Shown: positions 31,188 to 40,534 of the stretch, piece by piece
Position numbering within the stretch: the first letter of the stretch is position 1
How the letters are laid out: the number at the start of each line of letters is the position of its first letter
Source of the DNA: Dictyostelium discoideum
Lineage: Eukaryota
Length of the DNA stretch: 64,000 nucleotides
Reading direction: 5' to 3'
NCBI GenBank assembly: GCA_000004695.1
Contig: CM000155.2
Location: 1,280,001-1,344,000 of the forward strand
The notes under the pieces: model-generated
Seen by the model: the letters and a program-made list of their open reading frames with translations, nothing else
The model's database searches: none
Told to the model about the DNA's origin: nothing
Translations under genes and position numbers: made by a program

Positions 31188-34100
31188 ATGAGTGACGATG
31201 AAGATTGGGACGCTGATTTTAGCGATTCTAGTTCATCACAACAAACTAACATGACTTCTTCCCTACAAAGAAAATTAACTATTGGAAATCTTTCAAAAAA
31301 GAAATCCAAATTAGATTTAATGGAGGGGGTCACTAATAATAGTACTACAACTAATAACAACAATAATAATAATAATAATAGTACTGCAACTAATAATAGT
31401 AATAATAATAATAATAATAACAAATTAACATTAAATCCATCATTAAAACCAACAACAGCAACAGCAACAGCAACAGCAACTACACCACCAAATAAATCAC
31501 CAACTATTGCAGCTGTGAAACCAACAACCACCACTACTACAACCACTACTAAAGCAACAGCAACAGCAGCAGTAGCAGCACTAAAACCAATACAAAAATT
31601 TACAGAAGAAGATGATGATGATGATTGGGATAATGAATTAGAGTCACCATCAAAAGGTATATTGCAAAATAGAAAAGAATCAGTTGCAGATGATTGGGAT
31701 GCAGATTTTGGAGAGAGTAGTACAAGTGGTATAGGATCACCAATACAACCACAAATGAAAATTTTAGGTATTAAAGCAGATCCAACAACAAAAACCGAAT
31801 GGGATGATGATTTTGTTTTCAATGATAGTTCAGAATCTGAAAATAAATCAATATTAACTCCAGCTGTAAATATCTTATCAAGAGCTCGTTCAGGTAATCC
31901 AAATATTCAAAATAATTCTGAAAATAAAATATCTCATACAATTACTGAATTATTATCTTTAATATCTTGTATGTATTTTTTTATTTGTAATAAAATAAAA
32001 TAAAATAAAAAAAAAAAAAAAAAAAAAAAAAAAAAAAAAAAAAAAAATTTTTTTTATTAACCTCAAACTTTTTTTTATTTTTTATTTTTTATTTTTTTCT
32101 TTATTATAGTTGGTTCTGATATTGAATCTTCATTCCCAACCCCATCATCAACACCATTAGCAAATAATTTACCAAAATTATTATCAGGTAAGAAAATAAA
32201 TATTTTTATTTTTTTTTATTTTTTTTAAACTTTTTTTATTATTTTTTATTTCTAACTTATTATTATTATTATTATTATTATTATTATTATTATTATTATT
32301 ATTATTATTATTATTATTATTATTATTATTATTATTATTATTATTATTATTATTATTATTATTATTATTATTATTTTTTTAAAAAAAAAAAAGAAATTGA
32401 ATTTAAAAAGAAAATTGAAATACAATTAACAAATATTGAAGTTAAAGAATTAAAAGGTGATAAATTAGATATTTCAAAAGGATATTATGAATTAGGGTTG
32501 ATTTATCAAGGTCAACAACAAAATATATTAGCATTTAATCAATTTTCTAGTGCAAATAAGATTTATCAAGATTATAAAGAGGATTTAGAATTTGATAATG
32601 GCGGTGGTGGTATAACAGATTGTTATAATGATTCATATGAATTGGATTTATATTTTAATTTAGGTATCTCGTCAAAGACCATGGCAAATATATTCAATGC
32701 CACAGAGTATCTAAAGAAAGCATTGGAAGTCTCCAATAGGGATAAGATATTGTTTCAATCGATTCAATTGAAAATATTGTTAGAGTTGGGTTTAGCTTAT
32801 CAAACTAGTGAAACTCCAATTGTAGCCACTAAATATTTCGAACAACTCTTAAGATCTGTATTATTTCAACATTGTCCAACCTTGAATCATAATCAACATA
32901 AAATGGATTGTCTAAGTGAATCCAATCAAAAGAAAATTAAAGAATGGAATTATATTGCAATTGGTTGTTATCAAATGTCAAAAACTTTAAAACAATTAAA
33001 TGAAATTGATTTAGCACTTGGTTTCATTAAACGTTCAATTTATTCAATAAAATGTATTAATATAACAAATAACAATAATAATAATAATAATAATAACAAC
33101 AACAACACTACAATAAATAATCATAGAATTCAAGAGAATGAAAGTATAATATTAATGAATGAAATAAAGAAATTACAATTACAACAACTTCAAGATGCTG
33201 ATAATACAACTGTATTAGATTTTGATTCTGATGATTCTGGTGATATTGGTAGAAAAGAAGATATTGATCAATCGACTGGTAAACTACAACTACAAGATGA
33301 TGATGATGATGACGGTGATCAAGAGAAAGAGAAAGAGCAGGAAGATGATGATGATGATGAAGATTGGGATGCAGAGTTGGGTTTAGATGAAGAGGAAGAT
33401 AGAAGACCAGTTTTACAATTGGCAGGACAAAGTCCAGCTGTTGCAACAAGTTTTGGAAAAGATAGATTATCACCACATTATAAGTTATTGGATCAAGTTA
33501 CCAATCAAAACTTTGAGATTGTAAAATACCCAAAACCATCATACCTTTATTCATTGGCAACCATTGATGGTCATCCATTCTTACATGAAGAGGCGCTAAG
33601 TCAATGGTTATCAAGTATTATCGTTAAACATTTACAAGGTGAAGATCGTGCATTACGTGTGGTTCAACAACGTTCATCCATTGAGGAGTTAAGAAATGAT
33701 TTCGCTCAGGAATCCACTAAATTAAAGGGTCAACCAAAGATATGGGCAAGAGCAACATTAGAGTTTTGTTACACTTTACATATATTTGGTCATGATGTGT
33801 TGTGTTGGGATACGATTATGGAGTTTTTCACCGATTTACGTGATTGTGTCTCCTCTTCCCTATTGACACTATCGAATCGTGGTGGTAGAGTTCAATTGGG
33901 TAATGTACCATTACCACCATCAATGACACCAACTTCAAAACAGTTACAACAGGAACAAGAGGAAAAAGATGTAACTTATCATTACGCTTTTCAAATGTTA
34001 TACTTGGCTTCAAAACTTTGGACACCTGAAGAGGATGCTTCCTTTAAACATATGTATCAAGGACTTAAAAATTTATCAACAAATAACGCACCCCATGTAG

Positions 34101-37100
34101 ATTGTATAGTAGCAGAATGTTATTCTCATCATTTACATCATAAAATTAATTCAAATAGTGAAGATAGTTATAATAGTACAGATGATGATGAGAATGATGA
34201 CGATGAAGAAAATGAAAATAATTCAGATAATGAAGATAATAGCGACGATAATGAATATAATAACAATAATAACAATAATAATACTAATAATAACGATGAT
34301 GATAATAGCGATCATTCATCATCAAAAAATAATTTAAATAAAAATAGACGAAAAAATCGAAATGAATTAGACGAAGAACCAGAATTTAGAGTTAGACCAA
34401 ATGAATTCTCTTCTATGGAAGAAGAGAAGATTAATCCTCTAAATACATTTTTAAGAGTTTATCAACAATGTAATATTAAATTGAAAATGTCAAAACAACA
34501 ACAAAATAGTAATAATAATAGTAATAATAATAATAATAATAATTCATCACCATCACCATCACCATCAAAAATTAATTTATCATCATCAACATCACATCAT
34601 CACCCAATATCACCATCAAATTCAACACATCAAATTTATAGAACAATTAATCCAAATAAAGAATATTTAGAAATTGGTACAAAGAATGCAATGACAAGAG
34701 CATTGATTGGTATTCATTTTCATTTGAATGGTATTTCACCATTAACAACCAAACGATTGGTAAATGATGATTCTTATCAAGTGGAATATATGTACACTGG
34801 TCAAGAGTGTGAAATGTTATTGGATGCAAATTATCGTATGAAGGTGTTGACCGATCTTTATCCAGAGATACCACCAACATTTTTGAAAGCTAAAACTGCC
34901 TATGCATTGGGTTTGAATGCTGTCGATATCAATGATTTGGTATTGGCTGAGAAATTCTTTTTCGAATGTCTTTATATCATTGATAAATGTAAACAACCTG
35001 CAATTGGTTTACCATTGGTCCTTTCAGAGTTGGCTGCAAATGCTTCAATCGCTTATGCTGGCGTATTGTTGGATAACTTTAAGTACCAATATGCAATAGT
35101 TTCATTTGATAACGCTTTATTAAATTACAACATTAGGAAGAAGAAAGAGTATGGTACACTCTTGAGAAAAGTTGCCGCTCTAGCAAGAGAGAATGATGAT
35201 ATTCCATCAGCAATTTATTATTATAAACAAATTTTAAATAATTATCTAGAAGACGATCCACAAAGTAAAACAAATGAAATCATTTATCTCTGTGAAACCA
35301 TTAGCACATTGTATTGGGAAAAAGGTAGTTATAAACAAGCTGAAGAACATCTTAAAGTAATTTACTTTATACTATCAAGACCAACTCAATCTCCAGGTGG
35401 TAGTGGTAGTGGTGGTGGTAGTGGTGGTTTAGGATTAGGTGGTGGTAGTAGTGGTGTTGGTGGTGGATTAGGTGGAAGTGGTGGTAGTGGTTTAGGTTTA
35501 GGGTTAGGTGTTGGTGGTAGTAATGGTGGTTTTGACTCATCAGGTAATCTTAATAGAACTCCTGATACACCACGTTTCGATAATCCAATCTTTTTTCAAT
35601 TTCAACTTAAAATGGCATCACTCTACTTGGAGAGTTATCACTTTGAAAAGGGTTTAGAATTATTGGAATTTATGAAAAGACATCCATTACCTCATGGTAA
35701 ATTAAATTCTTTAATCTTTTTATTAGCAAAAGCTTACACTAAAAAAGAATGGTTCGATGAATGTACAAATCTATTAAATCAATTAGATAATGATGATAGT
35801 GGTTTTATTGGAGGAGGAGGAAGTGGTCCACCTTCTTTAAATTCTTCCACTTCTTCAAATTCTTCTTATAGTAGTGGTTTAAATAATTTTAATCATCATC
35901 ATCCTCATCATCATGGTGGTAATAATAATAATAATAATAATAATTTTGTAAATAGTAATAATGTTAATAGTAATAATATAAATAGTAATAATATAAATAG
36001 TAATAGTATAAATAGTAGTAATAATATAAATAATAATATAAATAATAATAATAATAATAATAATAATAATAACAATAATAATAATAATAATAATAATAAT
36101 AATAATAATAATAATAATAATAATAATAATAATAATAATATAAATAATAGTAGTGGATTTGGTAGAGTTTTAAAAAGTTCAGGACCATTAAATGGTGGTA
36201 GATATCATCATCATGGTGGTAGTGGTGGTCAAAAAATTGAAAGAAATTTAAAGTATTGGGAATTACAATGTATAAATTATTATCATTCAAATCGATTTAG
36301 TGAAGCATTGGTTTGTATTGAATGTGCAATTGAGTCATGTCCATCTTCATCATTGAATGCAAGAGGTCAATATTTTTATATTCGTGGTAAAATCTTCCAA
36401 AAATTAGTTTCCTTTTCAAATGCAACACTCGTTACATTTCCAACATCATTAAGACCAACCGATAATGATTTGAAAGAGATTGCTGACGTTTGCACAACAA
36501 CCACTTATAATTGTACAGGTGATTTAATTCAAGAATGTGTTGCAAGTTATAAACGTGCCTACCATTACTTTAAATCGATTGGTGATGATGTAAAAATTCA
36601 AAAAACTGTATCACGTATAGCAGAAACTTATTTAGATCGTGTATTTGGTCCAGTCGCTTTACTACATTATCCATTTGATGATGTTGCACGTTTACCTTTT
36701 TTCCCATCCTCAAAATTAATTCAAAAAGATAGTGAACAAGAGCAACAATTATCAGATTTAAAGAAAAGAAAGATGAAAAAAGATTCATTAAAAACTTCTT
36801 CATCAAGTGATTCAACACCAATTTCAGTAACACCAACAATTCAAAAACAACAACAACAGCAGCAACAACAACAACAACAATTAAAAGAATTTTATATTGG
36901 TTTTGAATTAATTGAAAATCCAGCAATGTTAGCATTGGATATTAATATTGATACTTGTAATATATTAGTATTGTTAAGAAATTATATGAATATGGCAGAA
37001 TTAAAATTTTTACAAGGAGATCGTGATCTTTCAATTAGTTATTGGGTAGAGTGTAAACAACTCTATTATACATTATTCTTTGATGGACCATCATTAATCA

Positions 37101-40100: not shown

Positions 40101-40534
40101 ATAAATATTTGGAATTCTTTGATTTATCAGTTTCAAAACCACACCATATCACAAATTTAATTGATGAAATTAATAATAGTAATAACTTTTATCCAATCAT
40201 GGTATTCACTTATAATGATTTGGTTGATCTTTCTCAAATTCCAACTATTCTATTAAAACTTAAACCAATCAGTTATTGTCTATTCATTCCATATTCAAAA
40301 CAAAAAGAAATTTTAAATAGATTCTTTAAAATTTATGATCATCATTTAAAACAACAACAACAACAATCAAGTGGTAGTGGTAGTAGTAAAGGAATAGTTG
40401 GACCACCTCAAACAACTAGAAAAGAAAGATATCAATTTTTAATCTCTGCTGTCCAAGCCGTTAAAGAAGAATTTTATACTCCAATAGTATTATATAATCC
40501 AACCTTTTTTGTAAATAATGATGAAAGTAATTAA
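31188..40534 (+). CDS. Giant (about 2,900 aa) TPR-like protein with repeated acidic DWDADF motifs and a separase-like C-terminal signature. Exons 31188..about 31968, 32109..32187 and 32395..40534.
   Basis: Exon 1 (MSDDEDWDADFSDSS...) ends at a GTATGT donor after ...LISL. Exon 2 (FGSDIESSFPTPSSTPLANNLPKLLS) ends at a GTAAGA donor. Exon 3 begins after aaaaaag, and the frame is restored as ...S-E-IEFKKKIEIQLTNIEVKELKGDKLDISKGYYELGLIYQGQQ... The acidic Trp motifs are DEDWDADF, DDDDWDNEL, DDWDADFGE, TEWDDDFVF and EDWDAELG. The N-terminal third has helical TPR-like repeats. The C-terminus has LQIFPWELILPEFIVRYKSL, resembling the separase DKxLQxxPWE...VxRxPS motif. I could not find a GHG/GCSS-type catalytic His/Cys pair. 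Confidence 0.55.
32262..32375 (+). repeat. (TTA)n microsatellite of about 38 units in intron 2 of the giant gene
   Basis: Seen directly. Confidence 0.85.

Follow-up and report, generated by a model that had tools for sequence, protein, structure and literature searches.

The question raised by this locus is whether a giant gene of Dictyostelium discoideum encodes a separase, a relative of separase that has lost its catalytic residues, or a protein of another kind altogether. The gene lies in a stretch of 64,000 nucleotides (GenBank assembly GCA_000004695.1, contig CM000155.2, positions 1,280,001 to 1,344,000 of the forward strand), referred to here in its full length as the window, where it occupies positions 31188-40534 of the forward strand, from the true start to the stop of a single gene; its three exons are spliced into a product of 2,999 residues. 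Separase, which frees sister chromatids, cleaves the kleisin Scc1/Rad21 and is inhibited by securin, is generally regarded as one essential and universally conserved protease. A sequence-only reading of the window had pointed to a separase-like PWE peptide in the C-terminal region of this product, to the lack of recognizable catalytic motifs, and to the size and TPR-like architecture typical of separases, and it had left two options, a highly divergent true separase or a dead separase-like scaffold. Our analysis best supports the second, while the first is unlikely given a separate C50-containing separase in the same organism. We put at roughly 60% the probability that the protein is a giant TPR-like scaffold ending in a catalytically dead separase/CHAT-type domain, that is, a pseudoprotease distinct from the canonical separase.

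An exhaustive HMMER scan of the full library with residues 2503-2999 identified 61 relatives; for 21, the match was at E<=1e-10. The full-length relatives measure approximately 1,800-2,600 residues, and the matched region is their extreme C-terminus. The named relatives within the Amoebozoa are from the dictyostelids Polysphondylium and Acytostelium, the Archamoebae Mastigamoeba, Mastigella and Pelomyxa, and from Balamuthia, Protostelium and Luapelamoeba. Outside the Amoebozoa, they are from the Heterolobosea Willaertia, which has two copies, and Pharyngomonas, and from the CRuMs flagellate Rigifila, so that the feature is no amoebozoan peculiarity. Their source labels read 'hypothetical' or TPR, none with a function, and the four relatives that were scanned full-length against Pfam gave TPR matches only. 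The family is apparently undescribed and lacks a Pfam model. Word-indexed protein searches with the raw C-terminus, with the C-terminus stripped of low-complexity sequence and with the family alignment A1 returned zero relatives; because the exhaustive search found 61 in the same collection, these empty results represent a failure of sensitivity. A relative 66% identical to the query sits in that collection as a cluster representative, yet was missed by the word-indexed search, whose empty results should not be taken as absence for eukaryotic proteins rich in low-complexity sequence.

Family alignments were built with 26, 37 and 46 sequences, the last of these (A3) being larger than A1, and in these the C-terminal domain has P2710, P2723-W2724-E2725, R2734 and D2895 as its invariant residues. 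The first five do not vary in any of the 35-36 sequences covering this stretch, which yields the pattern P-x12-PWE-x8-R. The peptide that had first drawn attention, SKSLQIFPWELILPEFIVRYKSLFDIL, is indeed present, at residues 2716-2742. Its PWE tripeptide occurs once against an expectation of 0.04, and by itself such a tripeptide proves little; judged from the aligned sequences, however, there is a real family in which PWE is conserved more strongly than any other feature, and it is not a chance tripeptide.

The same stretch connects the family to separases. As a reference we used verified C-terminal sequences of the human, yeast and C. thermophilum separases taken from PDB alignments; the human separase string given in the sequence-only reading turned out to be exact (7nj1_A and other human separase chains), and it matches the C. 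thermophilum separase as well. The comparison of the A1 family profile with the separases by hhalign gave a score of 37.9 (P 1.6e-4), with the local match falling on the PWE...R stretch, and this score is about 11 standard deviations (SD) above the controls, which consisted of 150 column-shuffled separase profiles (mean 13.9, SD 2.2, maximum 23.3) and one reversed profile (15.0). With A3, the score was 41.4, the P value 1.5e-5 and the probability 79.5%. In the aligned pair, the family sequence lICSksLQviPWELil..e.VvRyfSl faces a separase segment that ends in ...PVTRLPS, and the P, W, E and R of the family pair with four residues that are identical among the human, yeast and C. thermophilum separases. 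The LPWE...[VI]xR signature found at the start of the separase protease domain is thus present in the family. Furthermore, Peptidase_C50 was the sole Pfam family matched by more than two members (10 of 26, with a best E of 0.0023, and 6 of 46), and in the two members that we checked singly the match, of 11-14 bits, fell at profile positions ~209-256, which correspond to the PWE stretch. Among 177,635 PDB sequences, a 40-column profile of the motif matched four at E<=10, all of them separases, with each match individually weak (E 0.21-0.73).

An AlphaFold2 model of residues 2503-2999 made with 26 sequences had a predicted local distance difference test (pLDDT) score of 80-95 in the C-terminal domain and a poorly defined upstream part, and a second model, of residues 2697-2999 with 46 sequences, reached a pLDDT of 84.1 and a predicted template modelling score of 0.84. 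The predicted alternation of strands and helices runs through LLFI, the PWE loop, VRYK, PLFISCCY, LEFFD, FYPIMVFT, YCLFI and IVL, and is broken by a Thr/Asn-rich insert at approximately residues 2748-2776, which separates the Arg strand from the core strand that follows, and by a Gln/Ser-rich insert at approximately residues 2938-2956. The order of elements matches that of separase (beta1, PWE loop, short strand with the Arg, helix), and the domain ends both proteins. Every separase structure listed could be aligned with the modelled domain, over 150-216 residues, and the longest structural alignments are those with separases; CHAT and gingipain were also among the structural matches. The sequence-only reading was to be refuted if a significant Peptidase_C50 match and structural similarity to the separase domain were both missing: the match is absent in this protein, as is one to CHAT, and the similarity is suggested by these separase alignments. 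The caspase-like fold, with sheet order 213456 and an antiparallel last strand, closely resembles the EIIA-Man-like fold (21345), and the predicted fold therefore fits a separase-type domain and establishes none alone. The case for a separase-type domain is made by three features taken together, namely the fold, a signature in the equivalent position and a location at the very C-terminus of a giant helical-repeat protein.

Several observations weigh against this interpretation. Outside the 27-column motif, the profile score was 8.3 compared to a shuffled mean of 12.7, which is the level of noise. The 2,999-residue protein itself gave no Peptidase_C50 or CHAT match in Pfam at E<=10, and no relative came near the 27.8-bit gathering score of C50 (PF03568). 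Whole-domain hidden Markov models searched against PDB sequences found nothing significant, and Foldseek against the PDB gave nothing at E<=0.001, with human separase in ninth place at E 0.5. The mapping of the catalytic dyad discussed below, in addition, relies on strand order and a low-confidence alignment. Phmmer searches of PDB sequences likewise produced no matches, either for the complete product of exon 3 or for the region of the motif.

The lack of Foldseek significance, of a curated Pfam match and of profile signal beyond the 27 columns could also be expected if a novel and unrelated Rossmann-like domain, of the EDD or flavodoxin type, were carried on a lineage-restricted TPR scaffold and its PWE...R likeness to separase were convergent or due to chance. 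We regard this explanation, the main rival, as the less likely one, since the superpositions on the EDD-fold proteins DegV and EIIA-Man cover ~110 of the ~240 ordered residues (at 4-9% identity) compared to the 150-216 covered by separases, and since all separase representatives, together with CHAT and gingipain, appear among the fold matches. It would also have to accommodate the pairing of the P, W, E and R with separase identities at ~11 SD over shuffles, C50 as the only recurrent Pfam family, and a motif search of the PDB that found separases exclusively. Neither the protein nor the family members matched DegV or EIIA in Pfam. If the similarity were nevertheless convergent, the finding would shrink to an uncharacterised, lineage-restricted TPR protein.

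We then consider whether a separase-type domain of this kind could be catalytic. The absence of the GHG and GCSS motifs was confirmed both in the protein and in the family columns. By strand order, KYLEFFDLS is the counterpart of the His strand of separase (DLYIYAGH) and YPIMVFTYND that of its Cys strand (AVALLFGCSS), while a global hhalign alignment, of low confidence, and a local match at noise level point to a shifted mapping of the dyad that is at odds with strand order; under either mapping, there was no conserved His or Cys at the dyad sites in 46 sequences. The columns after LEFFD contain Leu in 30 and Ser in 20 of the 46 sequences, with His in none at L2864 and in one at S2865. Those after FYPIMVFT contain Tyr, Leu or Phe, then Ala, then Asp, with Cys in none at Y2893 and in two at N2894, and the Asp (D2895) is present in 46 of 46. 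MVFTYNDLV, one of the two degenerate sites that had been singled out beforehand, is a plausible counterpart of the Cys strand; the other, LYSLYTTPLK, was wrongly taken for the His counterpart, because in the model it forms the end of a long helix.

The only His and Cys with partial conservation are H2839 (31 of 44) and C2715 (24 of 35). Together with the invariance of Asp2895, their moderate conservation might suggest a hydrolase that is still active by means of a relocated pair, such as Cys2715 (strand 1) and His2839 (PYHSSL loop), or of Asp2895. We consider this very unlikely, as neither Cys2715 nor His2839 is invariant. C2715 is replaced by Ser, Ile, Thr, Val or Ala in one third of the members, and H2839 by Ser, Gln, Val or Gly in some and by Leu in the dictyostelid-like orthologues P0002 and P0003 (Acytostelium), which argues against a relocated active site. 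To our knowledge, no clan-CD enzyme has such a pair.

The closest known relation is with separase (separin/ESPL1/Esp1; MEROPS C50, clan CD) itself. Both proteins are very large, with a TPR-like solenoid and a C-terminal alpha/beta domain, caspase-like in separase and possibly so here, and in both this domain starts with a beta-strand followed by x6, PWE, x7-9 and [VI]xR. The N-terminus of separase is a TPR-like alpha-solenoid (PMC5921967), and the TPR matches indicate a large N-terminal alpha-solenoid region here too, a feature that is not specific. The TPR matches of the orthologues exceed the Pfam cut-off, whereas TPR was detected only weakly in the protein itself, its own TPR_12 score being below threshold. 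Unlike separase, the family lacks the GHG His and the GCSS Cys, and outside the signature the two have no similarity in sequence; in the low-confidence alignment, the loop that follows the 'Cys strand' seems to be shortened, with the invariant Asp after it, and the 2,999-residue protein contains long low-complexity inserts.

The shared architecture, with an LPWE-type signature in a C-terminal, putatively caspase-like domain, would also be seen if this were the real separase of the organism, extremely diverged and still engaged in chromosome segregation. However, the supplementary tables of PMC3195147 separately list XP_635802 as a separase of D. discoideum that carries Pfam Peptidase_C50, and Pfam C50 fails to detect the 2,999-residue protein. 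The existence of XP_635802 with its C50 domain, when none was detected here, indicates that the family is a second, separase-like lineage. Furthermore, the dyad is absent in all 46 members, from three supergroups, which fits an old, separate family better than divergence within one lineage, and we therefore judge an extremely diverged true separase to be highly improbable. Within the 64-kb window there is no other separase-like gene, none of the other large open reading frames (ORFs), namely the protein kinase-domain ORF, the 777-aa ORF and the Surp-module ORF, being separase-like.

Other known proteins were compared as well. The family differs from the TPR-CHAT proteases (such as Csx29 of type III-E CRISPR systems; PF12770), which among those listed are prokaryotic, in that it has no Pfam CHAT match and in that its structural score is lower with them than with separases. 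CHAT proteases retain the His-Cys dyad (PMC9729208), and neither this dyad nor a PF12770 match was found here. An identity as a TTC28/CHAT protein was rejected, since there was no Pfam CHAT match. Orthology with CFAP46 was likewise rejected, on the grounds of a weak fold match only and no sequence match: neither the family profiles nor P0046, the second paralogue of Willaertia, gave a sequence match to CFAP46/FAP46 (TTC40), and P0046 had no matches in the PDB. CFAP46/FAP46 is a giant component of the central apparatus of cilia, and dictyostelids have no cilia. Literature searches brought up nothing relevant on a separase-like pseudoprotease of this sort or on a link between CFAP46 and separase. 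A conceptual likeness exists with the pseudo-caspase c-FLIP, in which a domain of caspase fold has lost its catalytic Cys and acts by binding instead of cleaving. The two are not specifically related in sequence or structure, and size and architecture are wholly different; the caspase-8:c-FLIP chain appeared at rank 50 in Foldseek and was not significant.

Outside the C-terminal domain, two parts of the protein stand out. The product of exon 1 is a low-complexity, disordered N-terminus that begins with MSDDEDWDADF, and this beginning (MSDDEDWD..F) is common to the orthologues P0001, P0003, P0005, P0013 and P0020, as the C-terminal end ..NPTFFVNN is common to orthologues. Five acidic Trp motifs of the form [DE][DE]W[DE]x[DE][FL] are distributed over the disordered N-terminal third, at residues 7, 147, 170, 205 and 611, and they are kept at matching positions in orthologues from Amoebozoa, Pharyngomonas, Willaertia and Rigifila. 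In its W-x3-F/L spacing and acidic context, the motif looks like a short linear motif for binding of a partner. The second part is a strand-rich block at residues 2178-2282 with no Pfam match, whose identity is the highest among the blocks of the protein (82.9% to P. violaceum and 61.9% to Acytostelium), compared to 52-71% with P. violaceum for the remaining blocks.

A possible mode of action of a dead separase-type domain is the following. The domain would descend from an active clan-CD protease and serve as a non-catalytic binding module, probably gripping a peptide or a partner in what remains of the substrate groove, and the invariant Glu, Arg and Asp may be structural residues or contact the ligand. 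The TPR body and the acidic Trp motifs could recruit other proteins; both the binding function and a connection of these motifs with the dead groove are things that we only infer. More tentatively still, and with more doubt than confidence, the family might be an ancient sister of separase, possibly dating back to the last eukaryotic common ancestor, that lost catalysis early and was kept alongside the active enzyme in Amoebozoa, Heterolobosea and CRuMs. It might then form, with the C-terminal domain of CFAP46/FAP46, a wider undescribed superfamily of giant TPR proteins that end in a separase-type domain, in which the groove would be a regulated peptide-binding site and the acidic Trp motifs perhaps pseudo-substrates in cis or in trans, or elements that recruit partners.

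The combination of TPR with a C-terminal separase/CHAT-type domain is already known, as are dead clan-CD proteins such as c-FLIP. What appears to be new is a conserved family without the dyad that bears the separase signature in three deep protist lineages, and the evidence for its homology to separase is moderate. If the homology is true, clan CD would gain a pseudoenzyme branch, formed by a second, dead separase-type protein that occurs in three or more deep lineages of eukaryotes. This protein would also provide a handle on the roles of the non-catalytic surfaces of the separase fold, because PWE...R is the one sequence element that has survived. Since Dictyostelium is genetically tractable, the question is directly testable.

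The coordinates of the gene, of its parts and of neighbouring features are compiled in the table. Both introns are of the GT..AG type, and the splice model and the orthologue of Polysphondylium violaceum are collinear over both junctions; in-frame acceptors farther on after intron 2 would shorten the product by at most 34 residues.

Table. Features of the giant gene and of the window, in window positions.
Feature	Position	Strand	Remarks
Exon 1	31188..31968	+	aa 1-260 plus one base; ORF and GT donor
Intron 1	31969-32109	+	A56 run at 31992-32047
Exon 2	32110..32187	+	26 codons; first AG acceptor after intron 2 used in model
Intron 2	32188-32393	+	perfect (TTA)x39.7 microsatellite, 119 bp, at 32257-32375
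Exon 3	32394..40534	+	aa 287-2999, ends at stop; 2,678-codon open frame
Acidic Trp motif 1	31200..31220	+	EDWDADF
Acidic Trp motif copies	31200-31220, 31620-31640, 31689-31709, 31794-31814, 33359-33379	+	DWDADF, DWDNEL, DWDADF, EWDDDF, DWDAELGLD
Best TPR-like stretch	35036..35248, aa 1168-1238	+	in the helical-repeat body; sub-threshold Pfam TPR_12 match, 24.6 bits, E 2.9e-5 (cut-off 30.1)
Block of highest conservation	38066..38380, aa 2178-2282	+	strand-rich; RLVISLQVDNYFIHYVPSS..., also given as RLVISLQVDNYFIHYVPSSGRKKF...
Conserved region directly upstream of the separase-like domain	39047..39484, aa 2505-2650	+	
Separase-like alpha/beta domain	39650..40510, aa 2706-2992	+	last ~290 residues of the protein
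Separase-type signature, PLLFICSKSLQIFPWELILPEFIVRYKSL	39662..39748	+	P2710, P2723, W2724, E2725, R2734 invariant; profile match to separase LPWE...R
Peptide of the sequence-only reading, SKSLQIFPWELILPEFIVRYKSLFDIL	39680-39760, aa 2716-2742	+	PWE at 39701-39709
Putative His-strand counterpart, LEFFD and next residues	40109..40129	+	strand in both models; without His
Putative Cys-strand counterpart, FYPIMVFT then Y-N-D	40187..40219	+	strand in both models; without Cys
1,290-codon ORF	9702-13574	+	alpha-kinase domain (E 2e-60), partial N-terminal ArfGAP match; resembles Dictyostelium alpha-kinase AK1 type, in support of a dictyostelid origin of the window
Protein kinase-domain ORF	14776-17502	+	E 8e-28
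tRNA-Pro(TGG)	19996-20066	-	
777-aa ORF	22637-24970	-	sub-threshold PI3K p101-adaptor match, E 6e-5
tRNA-Val(AAC)	41992-42066	-	~1.5 kb downstream of the giant gene
Surp-module protein	61999-63987	-	E 5e-9

The G+C content of the window is ~20%. Very long homopolymer and low-complexity tracts occur in exon 3, for instance at 35813-36253 (approximately residues 1427-1573), and they include an Asn-rich stretch of ~80 residues around residues 1460-1540; further runs are Gly/Ser-rich or consist of Gln or Thr. Asn and Ser each make up ~11-12% of the protein.

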